Below, one piece after another: positions 20,247-48,441 of a stretch of DNA of 64,000 nt (positions are counted from its first letter, which is position 1; each line of letters starts with the position of its first letter). Under the pieces are notes generated by a model, which saw only the letters and a program-made list of their open reading frames with translations, was not told the DNA's origin and searched no databases. The stretch lies in the IMG/VR virus record IMGVR_UViG_3300033571_009591, positions 1 through 64,000 of that record. The stretch is one strand, 5' to 3'. This DNA is from a virus. The position numbers were made by a program, and so were the translations under genes.

Positions 20247-20340
20247 CAACAACTTTGGTAAGTCCCCGTCCCAGGTAAAACATATCCAAAATATATCTCT
20301 GGGGCGGGGCTTATCATTCGAAGGGTAGCAAAAAGTAAAA

Positions 20341-21249
20341 ATGTCTGAAACGGTTCCATACGGCGGCAAGGAAGAGGAAGACCCAAGTCTTTCCCTACCT
20401 GACATTTCCATCCCCTATGACTTGCGGCCAGACCTTTCCGACCTCGGAATGATTGAGCATGAGCGCGGCGTCTGTGAAGATACCTACGAAAACCGCGCCG
20501 CTCTCAGAAGAGCACATTTAAATTGGGACCCCGTCTATGATCAGATGGGTGCGCCAACGGGCTTGATAGTGGCACGGTCAGAAGAAGCGATGAAAGAACG
20601 GCGAGTGATGTCGTTGGCGGAAAAGCGTCCGCTTCTCCTGGACCCAACTAGCAACAACTCAGATTATTTAACGGGCCTCGACCTGATGCTTGAAGATTCA
20701 GCGGTGAAGGTAACGCCACCTTGGGTTATCGGCGCGACTAAGGCTTGGCTTGAGGAACAGCGTAACGGCGGCCCGAAGAGTCCACGGCGTGCCCCTGCTA
20801 GTCTACCACACCGTTGTCGAATTGTCAAGACGGACGGTATCCGCTGCATGCTCTGGACATCGGGACGGGTTAAAGATGACGGCTTGTGCCGCGTCCATCT
20901 ACGAACAACTAGACGGCCTGGAGCTGACATCGAGCGAGCGCGAGCGAAGCTGGTTCAGTCCGCCCCATACGCGGTTGATGTTTTGGAAGACATTATGGAG
21001 AACGGCCAGAGCGAACCCGCTCGCCTCAAAGCCGCTACAGAAATCCTTGACCGTGCTGGTGTGAGAGGCGGCGTGGAGATGGACATAGGTGTTGATGTCC
21101 AAGTTCGCTCAGCCGCTGAGATTGTCAACGAAAGATTACAACGGCTTGCCCTAGGAGCAATTCACGCAGCGGCTAGGTTGCCAGATGCCCTAGTTGTTGA
21201 TGCCGACCCTGTAATTGAAGATTCAACTACTACCGAGGAGATAGCATGA
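20341..21249 (+). CDS. Putative terminase small subunit-like protein
   Basis: Zn-knuckle RC..KTDG.RC...LCRVH and ARLKAATEILDRAG motif seen in TerS-like phage proteins. Confidence 0.5.
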   Translation: MSETVPYGGKEEEDPSLSLPDISIPYDLRPDLSDLGMIEHERGVCEDTYENRAALRRAHLNWDPVYDQMGAPTGLIVARSEEAMKERRVMSLAEKRPLLLDPTSNNSDYLTGLDLMLEDSAVKVTPPWVIGATKAWLEEQRNGGPKSPRRAPASLPHRCRIVKTDGIRCMLWTSGRVKDDGLCRVHLRTTRRPGADIERARAKLVQSAPYAVDVLEDIMENGQSEPARLKAATEILDRAGVRGGVEMDIGVDVQVRSAAEIVNERLQRLALGAIHAAARLPDALVVDADPVIEDSTTTEEIA

Positions 21250-21416
21250 CTACGGACAACAATATCCAACTAATGACAGCGGAAGTAGAAAGACTTACCA
21301 ATGCCATCAAACTAAGCAAGAACCGTGAAGAACATATACAACTGACAACGGAAGCAAATGAAGCAGCCTCAATACTGTCAGCGCTTATAGAGCACTCTCA
21401 AATTGGAAAAGAATAA
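21246..21416 (+). CDS. Small coiled-coil protein
   Basis: GAGGAG RBS, ATGA overlap; MTTDNNIQLMTAEVERL... Confidence 0.5.
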   Translation: MTTDNNIQLMTAEVERLTNAIKLSKNREEHIQLTTEANEAASILSALIEHSQIGKE

Positions 21417-22298
21417 AACAAACGCCAAATGAAAAAAGAACTAAAGGATTGTTTCTGGTGCGGCGAGACTTATGGAGCCGACACAAAGAACTGTCCCAAC
21501 TGCGCAACAAAGACGGACAGCTGAGCTAGCGGCCAGAGTTCCTGAGTTGTTTCTAGTTGAACGGGCATCACAGCTTTCTGCAGTAGATTATTGTTCATAA
21601 TGTATTACGGTTAGTACAACCTTAGAATTAACCCTATACACAACGGCCTGCCTAATGGACGCCTGATTTGCATCAACGGCCTGACGGATGTACTCTGCGA
21701 TTCTTGCTAGATGACGGTCAACATAGAGGTTTCTGGGTTAATGATTTTCCCTTGTGATCTATGAAGGACGGTCATCACGGAGTTCTAGGTCGGAACCGCC
21801 ACTTTCTCTCCTAGTCGTACCTGCCGTCATCTAGCTCCTTTTAAAATTAACGGCGTGCCCAGAGCTCAGCGGCCCGCCCACATCCAAACAACTTCTTGAA
21901 GCCGACAGCGATCCACTGGAGGTGGGACGCCAGGTATCACTTCCAAACAACTTCTTTTAAAACGGTAGCTACCGCAGCTGATTTAGCAAAAAGTAAAAAC
22001 GGCTTGCAGCTGTAAGCGGCCCGCCAGGAACCGCGAGTTGTTTGTAGTTTCATATGGCGGCCAGACAAACCTCCGCCTACACCTCCTCCACCTCCACCTG
22101 CAACAAAAAATTTAACGGCGTGCTAGACTCCGCTTTGCGACTTCAGTCGCAAAGTGAACTACAGACAACTTAACAACTTTGGATAGCGGCCTGGTAGCTG
22201 CACGGTTGCAAAAAGTAAAAGCGGCCTGGTAGAAGCGCCCGATATATAACGGTGTGTCTTCGTTGACAGTAAGCCAACGGTGCCTTAAAGTAGTGGGC

Positions 22299-22517
22299 AT
22301 GCTAGTGGAGTTGTATGTACTCAGCCGTGTAGTCAAAGCCAGGAAAGCGCGACAAGCATTAGCGGATGCTGAAGAGTACGAAGACGATGACGGATATCGC
22401 TATCCTGCCTACTTCCACTGTCGACGGTGTAAGAACCAGATGGACAAGATGCGCATCGAAGAACAACTTCAGGGATGGAAGAGGACTGGTGACGGTGGAG
22501 AAGAAATTCTCGATTGA
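22299..22517 (+). CDS. Small zinc-ribbon protein
   Basis: TTGACA...TAAAGT promoter just upstream; CRRC. Confidence 0.5.
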   Translation: MLVELYVLSRVVKARKARQALADAEEYEDDDGYRYPAYFHCRRCKNQMDKMRIEEQLQGWKRTGDGGEEILD

Positions 22518-22692
22518 TGCAAGAGGAGTCCCATCGCCGGTCTGCCCCAATTGCGGATGCATGCTCTTAAGAATTACAGTTCAGTTCGAATTAGATAATT
22601 ATGAAATTTCTGGATACCTATTAGATGACGCTGAGTGTTCGTCATGCGGATGCCTCATTACCGCCCCCACTCCCATCGACCACATTAGTTAG
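22489..22692 (+). CDS. Zinc-ribbon protein
   Basis: IDARGVPSPVCPNCG...CSSCG..ITAPTP (start approximate). Confidence 0.65.
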   Translation: MTVEKKFSIDARGVPSPVCPNCGCMLLRITVQFELDNYEISGYLLDDAECSSCGCLITAPTPIDHIS

Positions 22693-22977
22693 TTAACTTG
22701 ACAACACGTCAATGGTGTACTAGTATGTATACATACCAATAGGACTAGAAGGGGATCAGATGAATTACAAGGGAGTAGAGGTAAAGACTTTTATCTCATG
22801 CTACGAATGCCGAGAAGTTATTAGTAACTCCAAAAATGAAAAGGAAGTTACTTATCCTGACGGTTACCTTTACGCGGTTTGCGTAAAGTGCGCAGACTCT
22901 TTAAGTACACATCTGGATTTGACACTACCAAAAAAATAGTTATACTTGGAATACACACTCAAGCAAAGGGGATATAA

Positions 22978-23157
22978 ATGAATACAACTACTCAAGTAAC
23001 AGCATTACCTCAGTGCGATATCTGCACGGGACAAACTGCTAAGTACGATGCAATGACATCTAGAGGTCCATGGGCCTACATGTGTCAAGAATGTTTTGGG
23101 GACTACGGCGTGGGCCTTGGTCTTGGAAGAGGACAGGAGTTATTACTATGCAAGTAA
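22978..23157 (+). CDS. Small zinc-binding actinophage protein
   Basis: Manual translation: CDIC...YDAMTSRGPWAYMCQEC...GLGLGRGQ; promoter plus RBS. Confidence 0.7.
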   Translation: MNTTTQVTALPQCDICTGQTAKYDAMTSRGPWAYMCQECFGDYGVGLGLGRGQELLLCK

Positions 23158-23602: not shown

Positions 23603-24419
23603 ATGTTGACCTGTAACTGGTGCGGTGACGAGATGAAGGCAGGCGTGTACGAGATACACAGATGCCTACAAGACGGTGAAGCCGAAACGGCTAGCGCTGA
23701 GTAAGTAAAAGATTCGTACACCAATTCCATTGTGGGTTACTGGTAGACGAAGTACGGCAAGACGGCGTGTCCATAACGGGCACGCTTTTTTGTTGCCCGA
23801 AAACTGAAGTCGCCCTATAACCTGGAACGGGCAAGCGAAGTTGTTTGTAGTTATGCAGTGATCGGATGCATTTAGCAAAAAGTAAAAAACGGCCTGGATA
23901 CCTGGATGCTGTCGAACAACGTTGAGTTGTTTGTAGTTGTGAAACGGATCTTAGCTGGACTGAACGAAACGGCAAGGTTGAGTGGCCTCGACTCAACTTG
24001 ACTGACGGCATGCCTTAGTGCTAGTATGTACCCATGAACAAGAAAGACGCACTCAACGGACTCCTTCGCATGAAGGGACGCTTTGTGCTGAACCAAAGTC
24101 CGAAGGTCTTTGCGGACAAGAGGACAAAGCGAAACCGCACGCGCTCTGACAAGAAGCGCCGTGCCCTAGATGAACAGGAATAGGAAAAAGTAAAAATGTC
24201 ACACACATACTTTGCCGTTGACGGGTCTTACGGAAACGGAGTAGACATCCTCGTTGTTGATACTTCGAGTTGGACGGAAGCGGATTGGGACGCGGTTGAT
24301 GAAGCCAGCGACTCTGAAAGAATTGAAGTTGCTCGTAACTTGACAATCAAGAAATAAAATGAGATACTTGGTTGTTGAACAGTTATTAAACAAAACTAGG
24401 GGAATAGGAAAAAGTAAAA

Positions 24420-24683
24420 ATGGAAAAATACCAAATAATCGAAGAACGCTGGAACGCTGGGTACTACGCTCAACTTGAAGGCGCAACAATCCTAAAGTTT
24501 TTAGGAACTGAACCTGAGTTTGCGAGTCGAGGATTTCCAAGATTTTCCGCAAAACTAAAAAATGGTGAAGTAGTCGAACTTGTTTTATCTCAAGATGAAG
24601 AAGGTAATGGTGGGGGATTTATGTTCGGTCTTCCTGACTACACACTTCCCGAGTTTCGTACTGACTTGACAGAATCAAAATAA
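24420..24683 (+). CDS. Hypothetical early protein
   Basis: Promoter at 24340; SQDEEGNGGGF motif. Confidence 0.7.
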   Translation: MEKYQIIEERWNAGYYAQLEGATILKFLGTEPEFASRGFPRFSAKLKNGEVVELVLSQDEEGNGGGFMFGLPDYTLPEFRTDLTESK

Positions 24684-26399: not shown

Positions 26400-26488
26400 A
26401 AATCCTTAGCAAAAAGTAAAAATAAATGGATTTGACAATCCATAAAAAACCTTTATACTTGAACCAACACCTAAGAAAGGGGAAGCAA

Positions 26489-28953: not shown

Positions 28954-30732
28954 ATGCGTCACTTAAAAACAGGTGAAACAAGAGCAGAGGCAACTCCAAC
29001 AGAGTGGCTAAGAGCAGGACGCACGATTGGCGAACTAGCCAACAAATGGTCTTTGCGTAACGACATTGTTGCGTATGTAGGGCCGGGAGCAGGTGGGCAA
29101 GCCCCTGCGTGTTTCGCTCCAACAACTGCCGAGGTTGAAGTTAATGTTGATATTGCTTTCGGATTTGGCGTAAAGCCCGAAGAGGTCGAGCGACTTAACG
29201 AACGCAAAGTTCAATACGAATTCCCAAAGGGAACTGGCGCAATTATGCACGAGGCATTTCATGCTCGCTACTCTCGCTGGTCTATGCCTGAGGCATACAA
29301 AGAATTAAAGTCTGACGAATATCAAGCACTTATCCTATTAGAGGAAAGTCGTATCGAGTTTCAGGGATTGAAGTCAATGCCTACTGCTCGTCCTTTCCTT
29401 CGCTCATGCGCTATGGAAATTGTAATTGGTGATGTTAAAGAAGATATGGAAAAACAAACTCCAACAAAATCACTAACAAATTTAATTGGTTTAGTTCACG
29501 CAAGAATTGACGCAGGTATTCTTGAAGAGCATGAAGTCGCAGTAATAATGGAATTAGTTGAAAACCAAATTCCAGCAGATGTAGTAACTCAACTACGAAC
29601 AATTGCTCTATCTGCTCAAGCGCACGAACTTCACGAAGACGCTACTGAACTTTATCCACTAGCGATTGAGTGGGCGCGTATTGTTCGTGAACTCGCTAAA
29701 GAGCGTGGAGATGAAGAAGGTAATAATCCAGTAGGCGAAGCCTTGAAGAAACTTATGAGTGATGTTCTCGACGCTATGGAAGAAGCAAGTGATGAAATCT
29801 CTGCGACTAACTTTGGCGAACTAGCAGATCAAGAACAATCTGAGGATTGGAAAGATGAAGTCAAAGGCAAAGCAGAGGACGCGAAAGAGAAAGAAGAAAA
29901 TCGCGAAATCGCAAAAGATGTATTTAGTAAATCTACTGGGGCAGGTTCAACAAAAAGCAGTAGTAGATTAGTAGATACTCGCAGCCCTAACGCAGACGAG
30001 TTAGTCGCAGCAGTAACTATTGGTCAATGGTTAGAGAAGGCAAAGTATCGCGAGCGCGACGAACACGAGGTTGCCAGTATTCTCCCACCCGGACGACTTC
30101 GCACACGAGCCATTGTTCAAAACGCAGCATTGAAATCTCGTGGAGTGAACCAGCAAGTCGAGGCGTTTCGTCGCACAGTTCGTAAGCACACAGACGACCC
30201 AACACTTCATGTCGGAGTTATGGTGGACATTTCAGGTTCAATGGGTTCAGCCATGCAACCAATGGCAACAACTGCGTGGGTTATGTCTGAGGCAGTAAAT
30301 CGTATTCAAGGTGAGTGCGCTATGGTCTATTTCGGAAATGATGTATTCCCTACTCTCAAAGCAGGGCAACGACTTAAAGAAGTTTCTATTTACTCTGCCC
30401 CTGATGGCACAGAGAAATTTGCTAAAGCGTTCTCGGCACTTGATGGCGCGTTGAACTTACTTCACGGAAATGGCGCACGATTGCTCGTCATAGTTTCAGA
30501 TGGTCAATACACTTCGGAAGAAACTCGGAAGGCTGAGGAAATTGTTGCGAAGTGTAAAGAGGCTGGCGTAGCAATTCTGTGGTTGCCATTTGATAATGGA
30601 CAGGGCGCGGATAGATTGGCTGCCAACTATGCGGAAGTAATCCGAGAGATTACAAACCCAGCACAGGCTGCCGAAACTATTGGTAGAGCAGCAGAGCGTG
30701 TCATGACAAGGATTGGGCAACGAGTGGCATAA
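28954..30732 (+). CDS. CobT-like protein: HExxH metallopeptidase-like N-domain and C-terminal VWA
   Basis: HEAFH, EESRIE, MIDAS motif VDISGSM, VSDGQ. Confidence 0.9.
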   Translation: MRHLKTGETRAEATPTEWLRAGRTIGELANKWSLRNDIVAYVGPGAGGQAPACFAPTTAEVEVNVDIAFGFGVKPEEVERLNERKVQYEFPKGTGAIMHEAFHARYSRWSMPEAYKELKSDEYQALILLEESRIEFQGLKSMPTARPFLRSCAMEIVIGDVKEDMEKQTPTKSLTNLIGLVHARIDAGILEEHEVAVIMELVENQIPADVVTQLRTIALSAQAHELHEDATELYPLAIEWARIVRELAKERGDEEGNNPVGEALKKLMSDVLDAMEEASDEISATNFGELADQEQSEDWKDEVKGKAEDAKEKEENREIAKDVFSKSTGAGSTKSSSRLVDTRSPNADELVAAVTIGQWLEKAKYRERDEHEVASILPPGRLRTRAIVQNAALKSRGVNQQVEAFRRTVRKHTDDPTLHVGVMVDISGSMGSAMQPMATTAWVMSEAVNRIQGECAMVYFGNDVFPTLKAGQRLKEVSIYSAPDGTEKFAKAFSALDGALNLLHGNGARLLVIVSDGQYTSEETRKAEEIVAKCKEAGVAILWLPFDNGQGADRLAANYAEVIREITNPAQAAETIGRAAERVMTRIGQRVA

Positions 30733-37365: not shown

Positions 37366-37366
37366 T

Positions 37367-38164: not shown

Positions 38165-38418
38165 AAGAGAAGGAAATGCGGTAAAGTATTATCACCTCGG
38201 CAAATAGGCAACCCCTTCGCCTCCGCCGAGATGAGAGTGGGCTCACCCTTCCACTCCGCCAACTTCTCTCTTTAACCCCTTTTAGATGAGAAGTTGGTGT
38301 AGTAGGGTGCTTGACTTTCTATAAGAAGTTTGATAAAATACAAACAAGCCTCGCATGAAAATGCGGGGCTTTGTTTTTTCCCTAATCACTAGTATGAAAT
38401 GACGATACGATTTTATAC

Positions 38419-38664: not shown

Positions 38665-38694
38665 CAAAAAGTAAAAACTAAGGGTGGGGGTGAA

Positions 38695-39264
38695 ATGACA
38701 ACTGTTGCAGCGGTGCAGGGTGAAGGCTGGGTTGTTGTTGGTTACGACTCTAGAGTCACGGAAAACCAAGAGAAGATATTTACTTTGGCTAAAGACAATG
38801 GCAAAGTAGTTAAGAATGGAAATTACTTACTAGGCGCGGCCGGCGACATGAGAGCCATCAACTTACTCAGTTATGTCTTTAAGCCACCTGTTATTAATCC
38901 AACAACTTATGGCGTCAGGTTGGATAAGTTTATGACTGCAGTTTTTATTCCTGAACTCAAGAAATGTTTTGAGGAAGCCTCATACTCCAAAGATGGGGAG
39001 ATGGAGTCCCAAGTGATGGTTGTGGTCAATGGGACTATTTACGAGATAGGAAATGACTTTTCGTGGGCACATGATGAGTCAGGTATCTACTCAATAGGTT
39101 CGGGTGGCGACTACGCCATCAGCGCGTTGCTTGCCACATTCGAAACACGCAAGAGAACTATTGGAACTGCGAAGGCACTTGTGCGTCAAGCAATAACTAT
39201 TGCCTCGAAGTTAGACCCAAACACTGCACCGCCCATCTACATACAAGTACAGCACTTCGGTTAA
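38695..39264 (+). CDS. Proteasome beta/HslV-like Ntn protease
   Basis: N-terminal MTT nucleophile, GYDSRVT, K at conserved position, YSIGSGGDYA. Confidence 0.85.
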   Translation: MTTVAAVQGEGWVVVGYDSRVTENQEKIFTLAKDNGKVVKNGNYLLGAAGDMRAINLLSYVFKPPVINPTTYGVRLDKFMTAVFIPELKKCFEEASYSKDGEMESQVMVVVNGTIYEIGNDFSWAHDESGIYSIGSGGDYAISALLATFETRKRTIGTAKALVRQAITIASKLDPNTAPPIYIQVQHFG

Positions 39265-39384
39265 ATTTTTACTTTTTGCTGTTTAGCTCTGCAGCCGGCG
39301 TTCACTGGAAGCCAACTACAAACAACTTCGTGATGTCTGCTACAAGGACTTGACATGTCACCTTCGTTAATATATACTTATGCT

Positions 39385-39472
39385 ATTCAGTAAGGGGGAA
39401 GTCGCTGGTCACCTGAACGACCTGAAACCTAGGGGGTCGGAAACAATACGACTCCCTTACTGAATCTTTTTT
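39385..39472 (+). ncRNA. Stand-alone promoter-driven small RNA candidate
   Basis: TTGACA-17-TATACT (39350-39378), stem ATTCAGTAAGGG/CCCTTACTGAAT, T-run, no ORF. Confidence 0.55.
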
Positions 39473-39539
39473 GACATTACGAAATTGATGTACTAGAGTA
39501 ACTAACACAAGGACACAAAGACAAAGGGAGAAAAGATAT

Positions 39540-40424
39540 ATGAAAAGACTAATACTAATAGTCGCACTTGTAGCGTCATCGCTAACACCTGCGCATGCTC
39601 AACCAACTCAAACTATTGCGGTGATTGACTCAGGAGTCAATACTGCGTTATTTAATAATATTGTTACAGAGGTATGTATTCTTGAATACTCCAACTGCGC
39701 TAATGGAAAGCCTTTCATGGAAGGTAAGGGTGCGGCTCATACAGGAGTGACAACTAATGCTGCGCTTAATCATGCGACTGGAATGATATCTATTATCAAC
39801 AAAGTGAACCCTTCAGTAAATATTATTCCAATTCGTATTATTGGAATTACTGATAAAGGTAACCCATTTATTTACTCAAACAATGCGGTGAAGTTAGCAC
39901 TCGACTGGGTTGTTGCTAACCACGCTAAATACAATATTACTGCGGTATCCGTATCGCAGGGTAAAGTTTTTGCTGGATGTAGAGTCCCTGATGGAACTGC
40001 CAATGCGGTAGCAACACTAAAGGCTAACAATGTTGCCGTAATTGGTGCGACAGGTAATGCTAGTAATCGAAAAGAGATGGACTCGATTGCCTGCCTACCT
40101 GATGTAATCTCGGTAGGGGCAACAGACAACCCTGATAAGGGAACTAGCGGAATTGCTTACGACCCTAAGGCAAAGCCATATATTGCTCGATACAGTAATG
40201 GTAATGCTCAGACAAGTTTTTACTTGAACGCTAGATGGTATGTACTTCAGAGTAATGGAACTCAGAAGTTTACAGTCGGAACTTCCAACTCAACTGCCTC
40301 ACTCGCTGGACTATGGACGCTGAATAGGAAGTCAAGCGTTGCGGAAACGCAAGCAACTCTCAACTCTTTAGCAACAACTGCGAGTAACGAGTGGCTAACA
40401 GGAAAGTATCTTCAGATTCCATAA
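39540..40424 (+). CDS. Secreted subtilisin-like (S8) serine protease
   Basis: Signal peptide; AVIDSG (Asp), NHATGM (His), VGTSNS (Ser). Confidence 0.85.
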   Translation: MKRLILIVALVASSLTPAHAQPTQTIAVIDSGVNTALFNNIVTEVCILEYSNCANGKPFMEGKGAAHTGVTTNAALNHATGMISIINKVNPSVNIIPIRIIGITDKGNPFIYSNNAVKLALDWVVANHAKYNITAVSVSQGKVFAGCRVPDGTANAVATLKANNVAVIGATGNASNRKEMDSIACLPDVISVGATDNPDKGTSGIAYDPKAKPYIARYSNGNAQTSFYLNARWYVLQSNGTQKFTVGTSNSTASLAGLWTLNRKSSVAETQATLNSLATTASNEWLTGKYLQIP

Positions 40425-40735
40425 CCTAACCCCTTAGGAAAAAGTAAAAATAGATGCCCCCTCCCCCGAGGGGGTTTTCTATTGTTGCGGTGCTTGACTT
40501 TCTACAAAAAAGTGCTAAACTTAGATCAACAAAACGAAAGGGGAAAGTAAATGGAACTAGAAGTAGAATTGGCTCAATGTACGCGGTGTGAGGATGAAGT
40601 TGATGCGAGCACACTAATGGCTTATGGCGATTGGGAATTGTGTGAGATATGCCAGGACGACATTTAATATCAAGTATTGACTTTCTAAAAAATTATTTTT
40701 ATACTTACGCTACTTAATAAGAAAAGGGGAACACA

Positions 40736-41200
40736 ATGAAAGATACACACGAGATTGTAAAGTGTAAGAATTGCTTAAAAGATACCGAATACTCTTCATA
40801 TGAAGTCTACGAAGCAATATGCTTAAAGTGCCAGAAGCAAGTGGTGGTATTAGAAAGCGATTGCGTGTGCGCAGATGAAGATGGTCCAGACTATGGTGAG
40901 TGCTTCGGTTGCTATGATGATGCTAAAGATAATCTTAAGTATCTAATCAACGCTTGGGTAGATGCTCAAGGTAAAGAATTTTCTGAAGTCCGTATAGATG
41001 GAACGGGAATGGGATGGCAACGCCAGAGTGGTTATGCCCATACGGACATAGATGATATTGCTCATGCCCTCGCACTTCGCGGTGACTTCCGTATTATCTT
41101 TACTTTAGAAAATGGCGAACTAACTGCGACTCGATCATCTCATGATGAACCTACGGGAGCGCACTTCACCTTCACGCCAAGCGACACGCCAAGCGAGTAA
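40736..41200 (+). CDS. Hypothetical Cys-rich protein
   Basis: Promoter plus RBS; GMGWQ...SHDEPTG. Confidence 0.7.
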   Translation: MKDTHEIVKCKNCLKDTEYSSYEVYEAICLKCQKQVVVLESDCVCADEDGPDYGECFGCYDDAKDNLKYLINAWVDAQGKEFSEVRIDGTGMGWQRQSGYAHTDIDDIAHALALRGDFRIIFTLENGELTATRSSHDEPTGAHFTFTPSDTPSE

Positions 41201-41555
41201 GGTTGCGTATATTGATTGACTATGTTATGCTTACTCCATAACAATAACGAAGGGGGAATAAAATGATCTGCTCAAGTTGCTCGATAAGAGGTATCCGTGT
41301 TTGCTACCATATCGCGGTAAGTAAAGATGAACTTTACACGGAATATCTCGAAGATTAAATAGTAATTAAAAGCCCCCACCAAGTGTGGGGGTTTTTCTTT
41401 GCCGCGATGCATTTAGCAAAAAGTAAAAATTCAACAGCTGCGGTTGTCAGCTGCGCAACTGCAAACAACTTCGCCACTTCCGCTTACTACCTACTAATAC
41501 TTGACTTTCTATAAAAAAGTAGTAGACTTAGGTTAACAAAACGAAAGGGGAAAAA

Positions 41556-41981
41556 ATGTTAATTTCACCAAAGCAACTCGCGTTCGCGGGACGCCTTGCC
41601 AACGAACGCGGAGTCGCGCTCGCTACTGATTTTTCTACTTGGTCAATGAACCAAGCAAGCGAGGAAATTGCTCGCCTACTCGCAATGCCAAAGGTTGGCG
41701 TACGCGTACTTCCTGAAGGTATCTACTTCAAGGATGGGATTGTCTACAAGGTTCAAGTGTCTGGTGCTGGACGCTCATACGCAAAGGTCTTGCGTGAAAA
41801 GGGTGGGTTCGAGTACGACAATACTGCCATCAAGAATCTTTCCATCGAGGATAAGATTACGATTGAGCAGGCTAAGGCATATGGCGTTCAGTATGGCGTC
41901 TGCGTTGTCTGCGGAGCGTTGCTTACGGACGCAAAGAGTGTGGCAGCAGGGATTGGGCCGGTGTGCGGTAAGCGCATCTAA
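41556..41981 (+). CDS. DUF6011-domain protein
   Basis: CVVCGALLTDAKSVAAGIGPVC. Confidence 0.8.
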   Translation: MLISPKQLAFAGRLANERGVALATDFSTWSMNQASEEIARLLAMPKVGVRVLPEGIYFKDGIVYKVQVSGAGRSYAKVLREKGGFEYDNTAIKNLSIEDKITIEQAKAYGVQYGVCVVCGALLTDAKSVAAGIGPVCGKRI

Positions 41982-42426
41982 GTATTAAAAGTTAAGCCCC
42001 TCGCATACGCGGGGGGTTTTTCTTTGCTCACTACAAACAACTTCGTTCAGATCTAGCTGCGTGCGGTATGTTTTTACTTTTTGCTAAATATCTCTGCATT
42101 TTTGAGATGCGTCTGAGAGAACTACAAACAACTTCATTACAATAAACGGTAGTACCTCTCGTCCAAAATGCGGTTTGCTTACTAAAATAGTAAGTAGAAC
42201 CTAGAGAAAGGGAGAGAGATGAGCAGAGATAAGAGCGAGGTAGAGTGCGCTGGGTGTAGTCAGGTAATGCTGAGTCAGAAAAAGACTATTGACACTTCGT
42301 GGCATTATGACAAGAGGACAGGCGACCTATGGCACTTGGAGTGCTGGGAAGCCTTCAGGGCTTGGTTTGACTTTCCTGACCTTTAATGATAGACTCGCGC
42401 TAACTAAATAGAAAGGGGGGTTAGTC

Positions 42427-42939
42427 ATGGAAAACCTAGACAACCTCGCAGTAATAGATGAGAGCGTGGAAGCACCGCGCTACGAGATTGAGTATCCACA
42501 AGAGTTGTGGTCTGAAGTCTTAGAAGGATTGTGGATTGGTGGAACAGATGACAATGACATCTACGACCAATTAGAGAAGCCAATGATTAGGCGAGAGCAT
42601 TTCGATACGGTCTTTACGGCGTATGCGTGGGCTAATCCTGTGGATTGGTTTGTCAAAGAAATTCGTTATGGTTTTTGGGATAGCCATGTTCAAGGTGAAG
42701 CAGGGTTTAATCCTGCGGAGTTAGATGACATAGCCTCAATGGCGTATGCGGATTGGAAAAAGGGTAAGAAGGTTTTATTCCGTTGCCAAGCAGGGCTTAA
42801 TCGTTCGAGCCTATGTGCCGCTTTGGTGTTAATGAAAGACGGCTATACGGCAGATGACGCTATCGCCCTTATTCGTGAGAAGCGAAGTAAGTACGCACTA
42901 TTTAATAAGACTTTCGTAGATTACCTGAGAAGCCTGTAA
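42427..42939 (+). CDS. Dual-specificity protein phosphatase
   Basis: CX5R motif RCQAGLNRS; LWIGG; AIALIREKR. Confidence 0.88.
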   Translation: MENLDNLAVIDESVEAPRYEIEYPQELWSEVLEGLWIGGTDDNDIYDQLEKPMIRREHFDTVFTAYAWANPVDWFVKEIRYGFWDSHVQGEAGFNPAELDDIASMAYADWKKGKKVLFRCQAGLNRSSLCAALVLMKDGYTADDAIALIREKRSKYALFNKTFVDYLRSL

Positions 42940-43036
42940 GCGACACGCCGAAGGTCAGGAAGGTTTGACTTATGTCAGGAAGGTCTGTATTATTAAGGTA
43001 TTAACAAAAGTTGTTAATAAGAAAAGGGGTAGAAAA

Positions 43037-43192
43037 ATGAAAACAGAAGCGAAGTTCATCAGACGCCGTATCGCAGTTGCCGTTATATTTTTCGCTATGT
43101 TCGGTTGGGCGTTAGACGCTACAACACCTGAAATGTGTAAAGTACCTGTGGAGCAGATGAACCAATACTGTATAGATTTAATCTACCCATAA
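43037..43192 (+). CDS. Small membrane protein
   Basis: FIRRR followed by TM segment; promoter plus RBS. Confidence 0.55.
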   Translation: MKTEAKFIRRRIAVAVIFFAMFGWALDATTPEMCKVPVEQMNQYCIDLIYP

Positions 43193-43348
43193 TCGAAAGG
43201 GGAATAAAAATGAAATGTTTAACTTGCGGAACTACTGAAGGCATAGTGTATTCAGGCGTAGATGCTTTCTGCCTCGGAGTAGAAACAGAAAAGATTTGCT
43301 ACTCGTGCGCTAATGCGGTTGCCTCACAAAAGAGGTTGGAGTCAGCCA

Positions 43349-43582
43349 ATGAAGGTAACTAAAAAAGGAAAGGCTTTCCTCAAAGAGAGAGAAAGAACTA
43401 GCCCACTTCGTGCGGAGTTTTTACTTAAGTTTGCCTTCATGAGTGACGAACAGTTTTGGAAGTGGTCTGAACTAAAGACAACTGCCGAAGCAAGAGCGTT
43501 TATGGAAGCAATACCAATGCCTCCAATGAGGACAAACAAAATGTTTATCGAACTAGAAAAACAGGAAGGTAGCAAAAAGTAA
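43349..43582 (+). CDS. Hypothetical protein
   Basis: GGAG RBS; stop codon lies in motif A. Confidence 0.55.
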   Translation: MKVTKKGKAFLKERERTSPLRAEFLLKFAFMSDEQFWKWSELKTTAEARAFMEAIPMPPMRTNKMFIELEKQEGSKK

Positions 43583-43733
43583 AAATGACACTAGACACGG
43601 GAACTTTAGTCGCAATAATGATCGCACTTGCAGGCTCATGTACGGTGATGATTATTTCTATTCGCAGAATTGGCGATCTAGAAAGACAGAACAGATTTCT
43701 ACGCAACCAACTAAAAACGAAAGCAGGTAAGTA

Positions 43734-43922
43734 ATGGATGACACAACTCAGGTAGTACTACCCGACAACTGCGGGTTTTCATGTCAGTTCGAGTGGATTG
43801 AGGTTTCCTCAAACTTCTTTAATGTTTCTGTCTATACGCCTGCGCTTATCGCTGGCTTGGCTGGGTATTTGATTTACCGAGTTATTAAGAAGAGCAAGAA
43901 GAGTCCATTTGAGAAAAAGTAA
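43734..43922 (+). CDS. Small membrane protein
   Basis: C-terminal TM segment. Confidence 0.55.
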   Translation: MDDTTQVVLPDNCGFSCQFEWIEVSSNFFNVSVYTPALIAGLAGYLIYRVIKKSKKSPFEKK

Positions 43923-44103
43923 AAACATAGAGGCAGACGCTTCTAAACTCTATGACTCAGGATTGTCCATAGACAATGTTGCTTTGGAGTTAGATGTTTG
44001 CTACCGAACAGCAAGAAGGGCTATTAAGAACGCTGGCGTCACACTTCGTGACCCCTCTGCCCGCCTGAAAGGGCGTACAAGCCCTAAGAGAAAGAAGGGT
44101 TAA
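43909..44103 (+). CDS. Small HTH protein
   Basis: LYDSGLSIDNVALELDVCYRTARRAIKNAGVTLR. Confidence 0.75.
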   Translation: MRKSKNIEADASKLYDSGLSIDNVALELDVCYRTARRAIKNAGVTLRDPSARLKGRTSPKRKKG

Positions 44104-44399
44104 ATGAACAACCTTAGTATAGTTTGGACAGCCGTGGTAGCCGTTGTAGCAGGTCTAGCGTCAATTCTAGCCTCTATCGCTGGTAACGACTCGTTGTCTA
44201 TAAGTTTCGGTCTGTGTGCGGTTGCTTCGTCAATGCTCGCAAGCCGAGAACGCTAAGCCGTTCCTTAGCACCGAAAGACTCACTAACAACCTTCCCCGTT
44301 GGTGAGTCTTTCTTTTGGTGTGTCACTTGCTTTAATTTTTTAATACTGTTAGTATTTGCCTTATCAGGGGAACAGCCCCTAAATATCGAAAGGTAAAAA

Positions 44400-44609
44400 A
44401 TGACCACTTACAAGCGCGTTGCGATTACAGAAAATGCTAAAGGTTTCTCATTTGACCTAGTTACAGAAAACTGGTTACGCCCAAATTCATATTCAAAAAA
44501 TGCTCAAACAATGCTTACACTTGACCAAATTAAGTCAGTCATTACTTACTACTGTAACTACAGAAATGTGGAAGTCATCAATGGCATTATGTATCTTGGA
44601 AAGGTGTAA
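44400..44609 (+). CDS. Hypothetical protein
   Basis: GAAAGG RBS. Confidence 0.55.
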   Translation: MTTYKRVAITENAKGFSFDLVTENWLRPNSYSKNAQTMLTLDQIKSVITYYCNYRNVEVINGIMYLGKV

Positions 44610-44909
44610 AAATGACAAAAGGTACAAATCCGACAAAAGTTCAAATCATTTACATAAATTGCTGGAAGTGCGGGATTTCAATGTCCTTGCCTGAAAAAGA
44701 TTACTATCACGGCGCAAGTTGCGGGAAGTGCTGACAAAAAGGCTACTTTCCTGACCTCTCTGTGCTAAAGTATTACCTATGAATGACGAAAGACGACTTG
44801 AAAGGTAAGTAATACCTCCTCCCCAATGAGGGTGGCTGAGTTGGCTAGTACAGCAACCAACTGCGGTTAGTTGAACGCAGAGTCCATGTCCCCAAACAAA
44901 GGAATACCA

Positions 44910-45506
44910 ATGAATACAGTTCCTAATAAAACTGTCGAACAAATAATCAGCGTAGCCATTGCGGTTGTGTTGGTTTCTTGTTTCTCGAGTTATGTTCAAA
45001 CTTCGAGCGCAGATGTAGTAACAAATAAAGTAACGAAGGCTCAACTGGCTGAAGAGATTGCTGTACATGAACAAAAGATTAAAGAACTTCAACTCAAGAG
45101 GTTTGCAGAACAACGAACACCATTTACAGATGAAGAACTAGCCCAGATGCTTTACGCAGTTGGCTTCGAGGGCAAGGCTCTCCGAGTTGCTTGGGCAGTT
45201 GTAAAGAAAGAGTCCAACGGACGACCACTAGCCTTTAATGGCAACACCCGTACTGGCGATAGTTCATACGGTATCTTCCAAATCAACATGATTGGTGGAT
45301 TAGGCGTAGACCGCCGAGAAAAGTATGACTTAAAAACAAATAGAGAATTATTCGACCCTGTTGTTAATGCTGAGATTGCGCTTCACATGACGAACGAAGG
45401 TGAGAACTGGAGTTCTTGGAAAGTTGGAAGCGGGTATAATGGTAGAGATCAAGCCCGTTTCTTAGACTGGTACAAGAAATTTCCAGAAGGAGTAAACCTC
45501 TCATGA
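44910..45506 (+). CDS. Membrane-anchored lytic transglycosylase (SLT/lysozyme-like)
   Basis: AVVKKESNG, SYGIFQIN, LFDPVVNA, WSSW. Confidence 0.88.
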   Translation: MNTVPNKTVEQIISVAIAVVLVSCFSSYVQTSSADVVTNKVTKAQLAEEIAVHEQKIKELQLKRFAEQRTPFTDEELAQMLYAVGFEGKALRVAWAVVKKESNGRPLAFNGNTRTGDSSYGIFQINMIGGLGVDRREKYDLKTNRELFDPVVNAEIALHMTNEGENWSSWKVGSGYNGRDQARFLDWYKKFPEGVNLS

Positions 45507-46009
45507 CTGAAGAAGTAAACCCAATTCAAGGTCAAGTAGTTCCGACACCCGCCGAGTGGGTTGCTGAGCCACGCCATGAAGAACCTGTGGTTCCCGTTGA
45601 GGAACCTAAGGTTGAAGAAGTAGTTGTTGTTGTTGAACCAACACCAGAAGTTGTTGTTGAACCAACGCCGCCAGCTGCCAAAGAGCCAGTAGCAAAAAGT
45701 AAAAATGAAGAGCCTGTTGCAGCGGCAGCTCCAGCTCATGGCTTAGATGAAAAAGTTGTTCATACATCAGCCTTGGTTTTCAAGTCTAATTCTCACAATT
45801 CTGTATCAGTTGGTTTGGTACAAGAACGCTTAGTTGAGATGGGATTTGTCGATGCCAGTTCAGACAAGTACGGATGGCTATGCGAAGGAACAATGAAAGC
45901 CCTCGCTGAGTTTGCTAACATAAGTGTGGAAGAAGTTAATCTCAAGGACGCTTCAGTCATTGAAGCGTTGTTTGCGGGTACACAAGTTAAGGTCATTGAC
46001 TGTAAGTAA
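45503..46009 (+). CDS. Pro/Glu/Val-rich protein with C-terminal PG-binding-like domain
   Basis: SVGLVQERLVEMGF...DKYGWLCEGTMKAL. Confidence 0.6.
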   Translation: MTEEVNPIQGQVVPTPAEWVAEPRHEEPVVPVEEPKVEEVVVVVEPTPEVVVEPTPPAAKEPVAKSKNEEPVAAAAPAHGLDEKVVHTSALVFKSNSHNSVSVGLVQERLVEMGFVDASSDKYGWLCEGTMKALAEFANISVEEVNLKDASVIEALFAGTQVKVIDCK

Positions 46010-46107
46010 TTCATAATCAGCGTCCAGTCCCTCGTCTAAAATTGAGGGGCTGGGCGCTTTTTACTTTTTGCTAAGCGCTTTCGTGTGGAACATGGAAGGA
46101 CGACACA

Positions 46108-46398
46108 ATGGCAAAGAAAACAATAACGGAAGATGAGCGTGAGAATGCTTTCCTAGAGAAGGCAAAGATGCTTATTGGTCGTGTAGTCGCGGTGTTCGCT
46201 GCGTCTGGATTGTCTGTAGTTGGTGCGGGTTCTCTCTTTGGTATCGAAGTGTGGAAGTCTATTGCGCTCGCTGGAGGTTTGGGTGTCGCTACTGTTGTAG
46301 AGGCTTTGTCCCGCGCCTATCTAGCGGACGGGAAACTTACTACCTCCGAGATTAACGATGCGTTTCGCTTAGTTGATAAGAAGAAGGCTGACGACTAA
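46108..46398 (+). CDS. Holin-like membrane protein
   Basis: Two TM segments, DGKLTTSEINDAF. Confidence 0.6.
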   Translation: MAKKTITEDERENAFLEKAKMLIGRVVAVFAASGLSVVGAGSLFGIEVWKSIALAGGLGVATVVEALSRAYLADGKLTTSEINDAFRLVDKKKADD

Positions 46399-46456
46399 TA
46401 CGGATTGTCAAAAAAGAAACCCCCTAGTTTTCACTAGGGGGTTTTCTTTAATTAGT

Positions 46457-47080
46457 TTAGGAAGTTGCCCTGCGGTTAGAGGCTTTGATTTGCGTATAGA
46501 CACTAGAGCCACCATTTGAAGTCTTATACCCATACCGAACAAGTCTGAAGACAAGTCCCGAAGTGGTAACTCCAAGTAACTTACCGAGTCTGTACATAGA
46601 AACCCCATGTACTGTGTGCGCTTCGTTGAGCAAGTAGGAATACTCTTCGGCTTCAGCGCGGTAGCGCGGTGAGTTTGAGCGAACCTTCTCTGCTATTGGC
46701 TTGAGTTCTTTGAGCCTTGCTAGTAGTTCAGCGGGAGGCAAGGCATGAATAGTCAATGAAGACTTAGGCTCATGCTTTGGAACCTCTGGAATTACTAGAG
46801 TTGGAGGTACAGGCTCTGCGGTGTGCTTGCCTATAATAATTCTTACCATCTCATTTGATAGCCCTGCCGATTTAGCAATGCTGACATGTGTCCACCCTGC
46901 GTGTACTAGCGCAATGATGTAATCATTTCGCAAGTTTTTTAAGTTGCTTTTAGCCAATGCGGTGAAGTTGTTTGTAACCTCTTCAGGTAGTTGAACATTA
47001 GCAACCTTGTTCATGCCTGCGCGTTTGTAGTAGTTTTTACTTTTTGCTAACTGTGTTTCTTCGATTGTCGTTGTTGTCAT
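46457..47080 (-). CDS. Double HTH DNA-binding protein (paralog 2)
   Basis: VRSNSPRYRAEAEEY...GVSMYRLGKLLGVT...RYGY, nearly matching paralog 1. Confidence 0.82.
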   Translation of the reverse strand: MTTTTIEETQLAKSKNYYKRAGMNKVANVQLPEEVTNNFTALAKSNLKNLRNDYIIALVHAGWTHVSIAKSAGLSNEMVRIIIGKHTAEPVPPTLVIPEVPKHEPKSSLTIHALPPAELLARLKELKPIAEKVRSNSPRYRAEAEEYSYLLNEAHTVHGVSMYRLGKLLGVTTSGLVFRLVRYGYKTSNGGSSVYTQIKASNRRATS

Positions 47081-47101
47081 TTGTTATCTGTCCTTTGTCT
47101 T

Positions 47102-47434
47102 TTATAGTCCGAATAGTTTTCGTAGTTTGTTTGCGGTGGCTTCGTCAAGTCCAAGGGTTGAACCTTCTTCATCTACTCCACCCGTGAAGATTACATTTCC
47201 TTTAATTGAGTCTGTCTTTCCGAAAAACTCTTCCCATAAGTCTGTTGCTAGTGAGTTGAATGGTAAGCCGATTAGTTTGCCTTCTTCGTTACACCACATG
47301 GTAAGCGTTGGGTTTAGGTCTACGGCTTCTATCCATCCACCTACTGCTTCTTGAAGTTGCTTTAGTTGTGAACCCTGCTCTGCTAGGTCTACCTCCACCG
47401 CGACTCCATCTGTATTTAACTTAATTGCTAACAT
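47102..47434 (-). CDS. DUF3846 family protein
   Basis: LQEAVGGWIEAV...CNEEGKL.GLP.N. Confidence 0.85.
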   Translation of the reverse strand: MLAIKLNTDGVAVEVDLAEQGSQLKQLQEAVGGWIEAVDLNPTLTMWCNEEGKLIGLPFNSLATDLWEEFFGKTDSIKGNVIFTGGVDEEGSTLGLDEATANKLRKLFGL

Positions 47435-47550
47435 TTGTCTGCCCCTCTTTCTTTGTTGTTATGCCGTAAGTTTAGTACTAGTGTTTTCATTTGTCAAACT
47501 ATCTTACATAAGAAAACCCCCGCATTTCTGCGGGGGCTTGTCTGTGAGTT

Positions 47551-47718
47551 TTAGTTAGTTGCCCAGAAGTCTTCTACTGCGAAGTTCTCGACCTTACTCA
47601 CCTTGCGGTTTCGCTTGTTCATCTTGCGGTCTTGCTTGATTGTGTCAATTACGAAAGGTGAAGCGATTAGTAGGACACCTGTGAAGTAAGCGATAAATAC
47701 TGCTGTATCTGATGACAT
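47551..47718 (-). CDS. Small membrane protein
   Basis: Minus-strand promoter at 47790, AGGGG RBS. Confidence 0.55.
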   Translation of the reverse strand: MSSDTAVFIAYFTGVLLIASPFVIDTIKQDRKMNKRNRKVSKVENFAVEDFWATN

Positions 47719-47810
47719 TTTATTTCCCCTGTTCTGTAAGCACCCCTTGTGCTTATGAGATAAGTTTATCAAACTGTAGGCTAGTGTCAAGTATTATCAA
47801 GCGTTTTCTT

Positions 47811-47826
47811 TGTGATGTCTGTCACA
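47811..47826. promoter_or_regulatory. CRP/GlxR-type box
   Basis: TGTGA-TGTCTG-TCACA upstream of the minus-strand promoter. Confidence 0.6.
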
Positions 47827-47849
47827 CAGATTGCTAGGCGATTACTAGA

Positions 47850-48245
47850 TATCTGACCAATCACGACCAGTTACGACCAGTCATCTAGTAGAAGTTGTCT
47901 GTAGTTCATAGACCTACTACCTATCAGCCAAGACCTATGTTACTCATTAGTAACCTACTCACTAGTAACTTACTCATCTTTTAGGTTAGTTCTTATATTA
48001 GTTTTTAGGTTACTCCCCAGTAACTTACTTATTTTTTATGTCACTATTTAATAACTTGCCCCCTACTAAATTACCCACTAATAAATTATCTATTAGTAGT
48101 CATTTACTTGCCTACCCCCACCCACCAGTAGGCTACTCACTAGTAGATATTATTTCTCATAAGTTACTAATGAGTATTTTTTATATATTTTTTAAAATTC
48201 AATTTTTATCTTTTTTAGAAAAATTTAAAGTATTTAAATCTTAGT
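47850..48245. repeat. Non-coding tract with clustered TACT-N4-AGTA palindromes and an AT-rich segment
   Basis: GTTACTCATTAGTAAC, CTACTCACTAGTAAC, GTTACTCCCCAGTAAC, CTACTCACTAGTAG, GTTACTAATGAGTA; GACCA x3. Confidence 0.7.
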
Positions 48246-48441
48246 TGGCTATCGAAAAGGTAGAAGTCAGCAAAAAGTAAAATCTCCGGAAACGATTAAG
48301 AAACGCTCTAAAACTATGCAAAGCCGTCTCGCAGGCCAAAAGCAAAAAACGGTACTGTTCATATGTTTTAACGCTTCGTCCAATGCTTCCGCTGCTTCAA
48401 TATCCACTGTACGCCTTTGAAAAAGACTGTACGATAAGCCA

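Follow-up and report, generated by a model that had tools for sequence, protein, structure and literature searches.

In some phages, dispersed, oriented arrays of short sites let one protein control blocks of genes, and few have been worked out, the stoperators of Cluster A mycobacteriophages being among those few. The Cluster A repressor sites are described, in the part of PMC9283540 available to us, as more than 20 asymmetric 13-mers that lie at promoters and in short intergenic spaces and are oriented with transcription; their reader is a monomer with two DNA-binding domains, and repression is lost when a site is reversed. The closest two-motif case, the start-associated sequence (SAS) of Cluster K with its companion element ESAS, has had no known function since 2011 (PMC3203893, as far as its available text goes). 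Here we describe an array in a 64,000-nucleotide stretch of viral DNA (the window), the opening 64 kb of a linear viral contig of 84,215 bp from IMG/VR (IMGVR_UViG_3300033571_009591; CheckV 58% complete). Two words, motif A (TAGCAAAAAGTAAAAA, 16 bases) and motif B (11-base core ACAAACAACTT), occur there far above chance, are confined to a 28-kb island of early genes, are oriented, remain invariant in diverged relatives and are distinct from the early promoters. Judged from these sequence patterns, it is quite possible, though by no means assured, that A and B are docking sites of a phage DNA-binding regulator of the early cassettes; that a protein reads the two words, which protein this is and that its effect is repression are points that we infer.

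By analogy, A and B would work like an operator/stoperator network without belonging to the Cluster A or Cluster K family, and we do not file them as a family member because they show no overlap with promoter hexamers, are confined to the island and have no repressor homolog shown. The likeness to the Cluster A stoperators (L5 gp71, TipsytheTRex repressor; PMC9283540, available part) lies in more than 20 asymmetric sites of 13–16 bp in an actinobacteriophage, placed between closely spaced genes or across stop and start codons in the orientation of transcription, and in the tandem helix-turn-helix (HTH) proteins encoded here, the known Cluster A reader being a two-domain monomer. Unlike those sites, A is unrelated in sequence, is confined to a 28-kb block where theirs are genome-wide, and overlaps no promoter hexamer, whereas the Cluster A operators also lie at the early lytic promoter; a second motif, B, moreover pairs with A at fixed distance at about 3 of 10 sites in the present array, and no integrase was found. 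With Cluster K SAS/ESAS, as presented in the available text of PMC3203893, the array shares a two-motif make-up in an actinobacteriophage, a place in the non-structural part of the genome, a single orientation, the possible inclusion of the upstream gene's stop codon and conservation, in their case across subclusters. SAS, however, holds a Shine–Dalgarno core 3–7 bp before nearly every associated start, whereas the A core AAAAAGTAAAA has no GGAGG-like run and abuts an ATG in 24 of 165 copies; ESAS consists of two 17-bp inverted repeats that immediately precede SAS, whereas B, a single 11–15-bp word, may lie upstream or downstream of A at 36–52 bp, with its orientation free. Operator arrays of this dispersed, oriented kind are already known from phage early regions; new here are two words paired at helical-turn spacing, their clean separation from the promoter array and their re-coding in sister lineages.

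Dispersed operators of two kinds, often paired, also coordinate many promoters in the KorA/KorB system of plasmid RK2, and the C1 repressor of phage P1 acts as a monomer on dispersed asymmetric 17-bp operators. A and B resemble these networks in having dispersed sites of one or two kinds over many promoters, and differ from them in that there is no sequence relation, no ParB-type N-terminal domain and no ParA, and in that a plasmid prophage state has no evidence beyond a conserved small serine recombinase. The phage family offers a clean natural data set, in which promoters, ribosome sites and terminators can be recognised and A and B are thereby set off as a regulatory layer of their own, and it bears on how abundant lake actinophages time host take-over.

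Motif A is confined to one early block

An earlier reading of the DNA without database searches (the sequence-only reading) had counted about 28 copies of A and about 16 of B by eye, all in the island. At up to two mismatches, the window holds 27 A matches against 0.21 expected, a number reached by 0 of 100 shuffles, which bears out both the count and its excess over background. Twenty-six of them lie within 20326–48283 (21 on the plus and 5 on the minus strand), joined by a three-mismatch copy at 43910; the lone match outside (two mismatches, 52299) falls within an open reading frame (ORF). At one mismatch or fewer, the whole 84,215-bp contig has 22 matches, all within 20326–47049. A is absent from the leftward block at 1–17.8 kb and from 49–84 kb, and both blocks also have no sigma-70-type promoters. 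B is weaker than A. As a 16-mer it gives only 9 matches at up to two mismatches (0.09 expected), short of the earlier count, which held for the 11-base core: at one mismatch or fewer the core gives 20 matches against 2.94 expected, 15 of them within 21884–47902, with the 5 outside at about chance level.

The same arrangement recurs in other viral contigs. The exact A 16-mer is found in at least 113 IMG/VR stretches, mostly as single matches; 10 contigs with two or more copies, among the matches listed, each carry 7–16 copies at one mismatch or fewer, clustered and mostly on one strand. A and B recur together as oriented and island-confined arrays in at least 24 related viral contigs, and B was present alongside A in 12 of 12 related-contig stretches examined. 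In the more complete genomes, 26 of 26 exact A cores lie within 6245–31803 of G011 (124.9 kb, 86% complete), 23 of 25 within 69651–98689 of G012 (122.9 kb, CheckV 92%), and all 14 sites at one mismatch or fewer within 1225–18006 of G010 (101.6 kb), so that confinement of A to one 26–29 kb block is replicated in all three.

A logo built from 239 sites of this contig and 10 related contigs (G006 being counted although a duplicate) placed 1.6–2.0 bits at each of positions 5–15, the core AAAAAGTAAAA, and 0.3–0.9 bits at positions 1–4 and 16. Flanking positions carry at most 0.16 bits, and positions 17–66 at most 0.13 bits, with no partner hexamer of the −35 or −10 kind at a fixed distance from A in this logo. 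Because the information is limited to positions 1–16, A is a self-contained block with no fixed-distance partner element. This also sets it apart from the MotA-box middle promoters of T4, there being no −10 element 11–13 bp downstream of A. The 11-base core is invariant despite protein identities of only 40–80% between the contig and its diverged A-bearing relatives; A and B are kept in such relatives, as the sequence-only reading would have predicted, and A is, by this comparison, under strong selection as a word.

The early promoters form a separate array

The island has its own early promoters, which the sequence-only reading had overlooked. A consensus scan of 20–40 kb gave 52 promoter-like sites against 30.9 expected, of which 11 match 11 of 12 consensus positions, all on the plus strand; a stricter pattern (TTGAC[AT]-16..18-TAnAcT) occurs 35 times on the plus strand of the contig, 30 of these within 22263–42993. 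About 32 sigma-70-type promoters of the TTGACA-17-TATACT type were placed in this way, at 22263–42993 on the plus strand and at 47469–47497 and 47763–47790 on the minus strand. Each is followed by a AAAGGGGAA ribosome site and an ATG about 20–35 nt downstream, and sub-families of promoters share longer stretches, for example GGATTTGACAAT.... These are the real early promoters, with A and B interleaved among them.

A is not the early promoter, because the island has about 32 sigma-70-type promoters of its own and A keeps no fixed spacing to them. Across 11 sequences, a promoter of this type follows within 200 nt at 44 of 167 A sites, and the distances scatter (7, 9, 18, 21, 39–47, 60–65 nt and beyond), which rules out A as an activator or UP-like site acting at a fixed distance. 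In the window, the −35 hexamer starts 9 nt downstream of the exact plus-strand copies at 26407–26422 (promoter 26432) and 31919–31934 (promoter 31944, of an XRE gene). The separate promoter array makes a regulatory role for A likelier than a basic promoter role, and A and B together form an extra layer over an otherwise normal array of cassettes, each made of a promoter, a ribosome site, a gene and, in many cases, a terminator.

Genomes close to this contig differ by cassette gains and losses, as in T4-type phages, where small early genes with their own promoter and often a terminator form PeSL cassettes and relatives differ by whole cassettes (PMC2839356 and PMC4122927, available parts). Alignment of the contig with its close relatives G001 and G004 gave 31 ends, of which 12 lie within 25 nt of a sigma-70-type promoter, 1 at B and 1 near A, the latter being a break 11 nt from A 24406. 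The joints of this shuffling are the promoters, not A or B, and it is the TTGACA-17-TATACT promoters that fill the role of the PeSL promoter here. A 225-bp segment present here and missing in G004 (42136–42360) starts just after B 42124–42134 and ends 6 nt before promoter 42367; a further cassette-sized difference lies at 35378–35507; and in the strain of run X20, 252 bp (33453–33704) are replaced by 37 nt holding an A motif.

Such differences raise the question whether A and B are recombination linkers, or sites of another DNA transaction such as strand-specific nicking, packaging or DNA entry, rather than transcription regulators. Strand-specific nick motifs are known in some phages, the island is an array of cassettes that come and go, and the indel after B 42124–42134 and the break near A 24406 would fit. 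The distribution of breakpoints is nevertheless the wrong one; conservation of an exact 16-base word needs a reader, which homology-driven exchange does not; and nick, packaging or entry signals are not expected to avoid coding sequence or to sit at stop and start codons. We found nothing in favour of the role in DNA entry or packaging that had been raised for these motifs, and consider this whole class of explanation highly improbable.

Logan contigs of the probable source run, compared over 30000–49999, break at repeated promoters and terminators (32947–32961, 35764–35793, 38318, 41135–41164 and 47560–47589), and short-sided joints among them connect different A copies (31937 to 41406). These breaks and joints are assembly-graph effects caused by repeats, not biology.

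The closest named relative, DSL-LC01 (L122, OQ999401.1), has 0 A matches at up to two mismatches in its 129 kb. In the equivalent block (28486–70045) it carries about 23 co-oriented extended −10 promoter words (TTCTAAAGATGTTATAAT...); a conserved ribosome-site leader (AACGACGAAAGGACAA) and then an ATG come after each of them. The available part of the DSL-LC01 paper (PMC10611076) does not contain the word 'promoter' and holds no discussion of promoters or repeats.

A occupies gene junctions

We counted junctions over 165 A sites, with G006 left out and the close relatives G001 and G004 included. The motif's own TAG or TAA ends an open frame of at least 45 codons at 47 sites, its last A is the A of an ATG opening at least 40 codons at 24, and both overlaps coincide at 12; 141 sites do not adjoin a start codon. 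The ORF that follows A begins at position 16 of the motif in 26 of 215 sites and otherwise mostly 15–26 nt on, with a ribosome site between. Only 30 of 162 A sites fall deep inside an open frame, half the rate seen at random positions (1214 of 3300), so the description of A as woven into genes and conserved in any frame was overstated: it sits mostly at junctions.

The individual overlaps with stop and start codons had been correctly noticed. Exact plus-strand copies supply the A of the ATG of a 302-aa ORF (A 20326–20341, ORF 20341–21249) and make up an entire junction, from the TAG stop of the upstream frame to the ATG of ORF 32476–32706 (A 32461–32476). At 43570–43585 (exact, plus strand) TAA ends ORF 43313–43582 and the last A starts a 49-codon ORF; in a TAGG variant at 24181–24196 (+) the TAG ends the upstream frame and the last A starts a 53-codon ORF; and a second TAGG variant, at 24405–24420 (+), lies downstream of promoter 24340, between an AGGGGAA ribosome site and the ATG of ORF 24420–24683. 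Further plus-strand copies provide stop codons only: TAG of ORF 32612–32863 (A 32861–32876, exact, with promoter 32940 downstream), TAA of ORF 36598–37029 (A 37017–37032, exact, with promoter 37051 18 nt downstream), TAA of ORF 37808–38164 (A 38152–38167, two mismatches), TAG of ORF 38419–38664 (A 38662–38677, exact, with a ribosome site and the ATG 38695 of the HslV-like gene 18 nt on) and TAA of ORF 43734–43922 (degenerate A 43910–43925, three mismatches, overlapping the start of HTH ORF 43909–44103). The A position at 38662–38677 is retained in G007 and G008.

Of the two copies said to lie inside reading frames, the exact one at 45690–45705 (+) does so, within a low-complexity linker of ORF 45503–46009; the homologous place in G003 holds a full B-A-B module. 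The exact copy at 47034–47049 (−) has the same direction as the leftward tandem-HTH gene 46457–47080, at or in its 5′ end, and is coding only in the longest version of that gene, as an in-frame ATG 20 nt downstream of A would place A upstream of it.

Where A abuts an ATG, a ribosome-site-like run (GGG, AGGA or GAGG) lies just upstream of or over A positions 1–4, and the core fills the gap between ribosome site and ATG, with a spacing of about 12–16 nt against the usual 6 or so. These runs weaken the idea that leaderless mRNAs start at position 16, and they would explain the sharp peak at position 16 as the tightest packing with the ribosome site still usable.

Hairpins are no companion of A. 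Windows of 36 nt at or below −8 kcal/mol lie beside 15% of A sites and 13% of 1650 controls, and flank folding energies do not differ from controls (Mann–Whitney p 0.64 and 0.29), ruling out A as the U-tract of antisense terminators. Terminator-like hairpins adjoin single sites only (46058, 40435, 41414 and 34882): the exact reversed copy at 46058–46073 (−) reads on the plus strand as the T-tract of terminator 46019–46058, and the TAGG variant at 40435–40450 (+) lies directly 5′ of hairpin 40456–40475 and promoter 40494. Only 26 of 379 A sites have a strict terminator in the 80 nt before them, and what then follows A is in most cases B and more non-coding DNA, with no gene.

B pairs with A in modules upstream of promoters

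B lies within 90 nt of A at 48 of the 165 sites (about 3 of 10), either 33–49 nt upstream or 38–55 nt downstream of A position 1. Centre to centre the two are about 36–52 bp apart, most often 40–42, with B in either orientation, and the spacers between them are unconserved even between orthologous modules. In the window, 9 A sites have a nearby B and 17 are solitary.

In a 0.9-kb non-coding stretch, exact A 21984–21999 (+) forms a B-A-B module with B 21943–21953 (+), 41 nt upstream, and B 22035–22045 (−) on its 3′ side, a one-mismatch B at 21884–21894 (+) preceding both; A 22206–22221 (+, two mismatches) has B 22161–22171 (+) 45 nt upstream and promoter 22263 downstream. The module of exact A 23873–23888 (+), with an exact B at 23838–23848 (−) on its 5′ and B 23924–23934 (−) on its 3′ side, lies 3′ of hairpin 23764–23786 and 5′ of promoter 23998. 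Exact A 34882–34897 (+) begins 8 nt past the strong terminator 34838–34873, with B 34931–34941 (+) 49 nt downstream, and exact A 41414–41429 (+) follows the order terminator 41373–41391, A, B 41461–41471 (+), promoter 41501. Three minus-strand sites oppose their flanking genes, each as part of a B-A-B or A-B module that lies past a terminator or a gene's end and ahead of the next promoter: exact A 35836–35851, flanked by exact B 35798–35808 (+) and 35890–35900 (+) between terminator 35759–35784 and promoter 35944; A 39266–39281 (one mismatch), directly past the stop at 39264 and upstream of promoter 39350, adjoined by exact B 39318–39328 (+); and exact A 42071–42086, 3′ of terminator 41994–42019, flanked by exact B 42033–42043 (+) and 42124–42134 (+). 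An exact B at 46965–46975 (−) lies 74 nt downstream of A 47034(−), within the tandem-HTH gene, and a one-mismatch B at 47892–47902 (−), at the edge of an AT-rich repeat array, has no nearby A.

A points along its flanking genes at 22 of 26 sites of the window, in agreement with the orientation first noticed, the exceptions being the three module sites and 46058; among solitary sites the figure is 16 of 17. This orientation-free use beside oriented use argues for recognition as DNA.

An A-rich linear signal in mRNA, either a translational repressor site of the T4 RegA kind or an endoribonuclease cut that separates or inactivates cistrons, would explain why solitary sites are in the sense strand of transcribed junctions in 16 of 17 cases, and the 24 of 165 sites where the core lies between a ribosome-site-like run and an ATG are an obvious place for translational control. 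It leaves aside the 141 sites that are not beside a start codon, and the B-A-B sites, which lie past terminators in either orientation at a set distance from a second DNA motif; no structure accompanies A (15% against 13% of windows), and an invariant, unstructured 11-base core is unusual for RNA–protein recognition. We consider such a signal quite improbable. Recognition of double-stranded DNA is the best explanation of a self-contained, asymmetric and invariant 16-bp word with B at helical-turn distances and with both oriented and orientation-free uses.

Two GC-richer non-coding stretches, 21430–22360 and 23690–24030, combine several A and B copies with a one-strand cluster of AACGGC, 12 of whose 25 plus-strand copies in the contig fall within 20–24 kb; this word resembles the ACACGGC of a sister lineage (L189, below). 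The two stretches may be an origin or a regulatory hub.

Candidate readers and re-coded sister lineages

Host take-over proteins are often acidic, and the conserved small proteins of the island are mostly very acidic (pI 4.1–4.6). The basic ones are 43909–44103 (a 64-aa HTH protein), 46457–47080(−), 48442–48942 and 19959–20246, and the first three, all HTH proteins encoded next to A sites, could be the readers of A and B. The XRE protein at 32001, earlier suggested for binding assays, cannot be a shared reader because none of the 9 relatives compared has a homolog of it.

The proteins 46457–47080 and 48442–48942 are weak paralogs (24% identity over 135 residues, E 0.003). The AlphaFold model of 46457–47080, built on a 55-sequence alignment (mean pLDDT 86), has two four-helix HTH domains joined by a proline-rich linker. 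Among the 55 family members, 31 match HTH_3 and 28 match Sigma70_r4. No match to PDB sequences was obtained with phmmer, and a Foldseek search of the model against the PDB gave nothing at E ≤ 0.001, its best matches being sigma-A chains (E 0.06–0.2).

We retrieved 80 viral loci through homologs of 46457–47080, with 20-kb flanks. A arrays occur in 24 of them, namely those whose homologs have at least 48% identity, except L154 and L155. Three A-less loci carry a different element, GTATT[C/T][A/G]TTTTTT followed after about 15 nt by ACACGGC, at a fixed distance upstream of every cassette promoter, with the T-rich strand as the coding strand. In L189 (118–8159) the order GTATTCATTTTTT, about 15 nt, ACACGGC, then promoter occurs 14 times with fixed geometry; L203 (359–6731) has GTATTTATTTTTT 15 times and L173 (65–7363) has GTATTCGTTTTTT 11 times. 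A single-base variant is fixed in all 11–15 copies of each genome, the pattern that a co-evolving phage-encoded reader would leave, and because the words are invariant over deep divergence and re-coded in sister lineages, the reader should be findable by co-variation. Other A-less lineages have extended −10 words.

A bolder version, which we consider distinctly unlikely, would have a two-word operator grammar read by one protein of the 46457–47080 family, with two HTH domains and a long flexible linker: A would serve as a polar roadblock in operons and B-A-B modules as loop or insulator anchors, about 30 cassettes would be shut off at once in a large phage without its own polymerase, and the sister lineages (L189, L203 and L173) would have re-coded the words together with the protein. 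If true, this would amount to a general, evolvable early shut-off code of freshwater actinophages.

The gene at 36339–36653(+) encodes a very acidic 104-aa protein with at least 696 close environmental homologs (67–95% identity among the matches listed). Its match to Phage_RpbA, the T4 RNA-polymerase-binding protein, is below threshold (E 0.0036; 17.8 bits against a cut-off of 25), it has no PHROG match, and no Pfam domain was found among 120 listed homologs; as an RpbA-like RNA-polymerase binder it was set aside on these grounds and stays a weak lead.

An operator role weighed against a promoter role

In the reading that we tentatively favour, A would be an asymmetric docking site for a phage-encoded, sequence-specific DNA-binding protein and B would be bound by a second domain or by a partner protein. 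The pair would regulate, most likely shut off or insulate, some 30 small early-gene cassettes that host RNA polymerase would transcribe from the sigma-70-type promoters. Solitary A sites at junctions, pointing along transcription, would act as polar roadblocks in the manner of stoperators; B, about 4–5 helical turns from A, would complete a nucleoprotein module of about 100 bp (B-A-B) in the untranscribed gap between terminator and promoter, upstream of promoters, where the orientation of A would be free. The coating or silencing of the early region by a phage protein that the sequence-only reading proposed is the reading that fits best, and is to be taken as inference. We favour an operator over a sigma-type promoter because A is self-contained and has no fixed partner hexamer.

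Several observations weigh against an operator role. No A overlaps a −35 or −10 hexamer at the approximately 32 promoters, the nearest gaps being 6–9 nt, so the classical operator at a promoter is missing. Searches of 4 genomes for a tyrosine integrase were negative in all 4 (the control was positive in 14 of 14), so a lysogeny repressor is not implied. The tandem-HTH family is also present in 56 of the 80 loci without A and is therefore wider than the motif, and L154 and L155 have homologs at 50% identity, about as similar as in some A-bearing loci, yet no A. VIA-align matched the 46457–47080 model to the KorB DNA-binding domain (Z 6.4, rmsd 2.1 over 54 residues of the N-terminal domain), ParB (Z 6.2) and Spo0J (Z 6.0), and to the Cluster A2 repressor 7tz1_A (Z 4.4, rmsd 1.9 over 45 residues); these matches are weak and generic. 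Finally, some sites suit a promoter better: hairpin, A, ribosome site and ATG follow one another without a sigma-70 promoter at 20326, at 30869–30884 (+, one mismatch; ATG 30916 32 nt on) and at 33474–33489 (+, two mismatches; ATG 33491), and in the strain of run X20 the ribosome site of gene 33717 is immediately preceded by an A motif.

These last sites are the core of the case for A as a second-class (middle) promoter, at which host RNA polymerase with a very diverged phage factor would start at or just after the 16-bp block, many early genes then having tandem sigma-70-type and A-type promoters. Dispersed oriented motifs of 16 bases or more upstream of genes are mostly promoters, as in T7-like, T4 and SPO1 programmes; A is the sole element between hairpin and gene start at the three sites above; the distances from A to the next ORF start, at position 16 or mostly 15–26 nt on, would suit a start there; and 36339–36653 has its weak match to Phage_RpbA. 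An A-like site (48268–48283 (+), two mismatches) is also retained where the rightward packaging and structural genes begin, a block without promoters of its own, and at the same place in G003, G005, G007 and G009. Yet where the core lies between ribosome site and ATG, a start at position 16 would be pointless; 3 of 26 A sites oppose their genes; a strict terminator upstream of A, where present, mostly leads into B and non-coding DNA; and A is missing from the other blocks without sigma-70 promoters (1–17.8 and 49–84 kb), so it is not a general non-early promoter. Nor did searches turn up a matching factor in the genomes covered. Sigma70_r2 gave 0 of 5 genomes (the control was positive in 10 of 14 known genomes), in a search that could miss very diverged factors; 0 of the 10 ORFs scanned among the 33 of at least 250 aa in G012 (92% complete, 122.9 kb) was DNA- or RNA-polymerase-like; and a DxDGD-type motif search of the large ORFs of the contig found nothing. 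The T7-like RNA polymerase profile PF00940, with no match here and none in its control genomes either, says nothing on this point. The absence of a Pfam domain in the 120 homologs of 36339–36653 likewise gives the factor no backing. We regard a second-class promoter as unlikely, though it has a real chance of being right. The large leftmost ORFs of G012 are collagen-repeat fibre proteins.

Source contig, relatives and further features

The contig is arranged in three parts. A leftward block at 1–17.8 kb encodes a small serine recombinase, DNA methylases, a class II ribonucleotide reductase and a CHAP lysin; 20–48 kb holds about 70 small rightward genes, among them those for an AAA_5 ATPase, a VWA/CoxE protein, an HslV-like protein and an SLT lysozyme; and the structural genes, also rightward, start with the portal gene at 49946, after which comes that of a 2359-aa protein. 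The small serine recombinase (about 225 aa; here 1691–2359(−)) is conserved in 4 of 4 genomes. Searches of 20 island proteins against PHROGs matched only portal, phosphatase and function-unassigned families, and Rfam at gathering thresholds with ARAGORN gave tRNA-Arg at 11411–11484 as the sole match.

The metagenome-assembled Actinomycetia phage DSL-LC01 is related through its portal protein (73.9% identity over 88%), followed by Microbacterium, Arthrobacter and Gordonia phages; an Actinomycetia host was predicted for DSL-LC01 (PMC10611076, available text). In Microbacterium phage Pumpernickel, a cultured relative, the 41.5 kb surrounding the portal gene contain no repeat array. A megablast search with 24 kb of the island against 50,697 phage records returned no match, and a scan of 185,579 species genomes for A-N(20–45)-B gave 10 single matches in unrelated metagenome-assembled genomes and no arrays, hence no prophage copy and no host clue. 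The exact A 15-mer was not found in the literature searched, supplements lying outside that search, and a search for work on freshwater actinophage motifs gave nothing relevant among the papers listed.

The array-bearing phages are an uncultured freshwater phage family with an early block of 26–29 kb. G001 and G004 have 87–94% DNA identity to the contig, and the other A-bearing contigs 65–75%, alignable in patches only; G006 and G010 have identical A spacing and are probably one phage, as far as that pattern tells. A relative about 90% identical to the contig is contained in a lake-water run, and a run labelled metatranscriptomic looks like DNA of an approximately 90% identical relative, its contigs showing no starts or ends.

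Between the divergent tandem-HTH genes, an AT-rich non-coding array at 47830–48260 repeats a 17-bp word, TACTCAYTAGTAACYTA, in at least 4 direct copies and 1 inverted copy, which makes it a candidate for an origin, a pac site or a divergent control region where the structural block starts. Within the island, a segment of about 85 nt that follows promoter 39350 (39379–39470(+)) is 84–90% identical in relatives, its flanking genes being at about 69%. It folds into a long hairpin whose 5′ arm carries a ribosome-site-like AAGGGGGAA run paired to CUCCCUUA; Rfam gave no match to it at gathering thresholds, and compensatory changes occur at 4 of 24 predicted pairs across 6 sequences. The segment is probably a small structured RNA.

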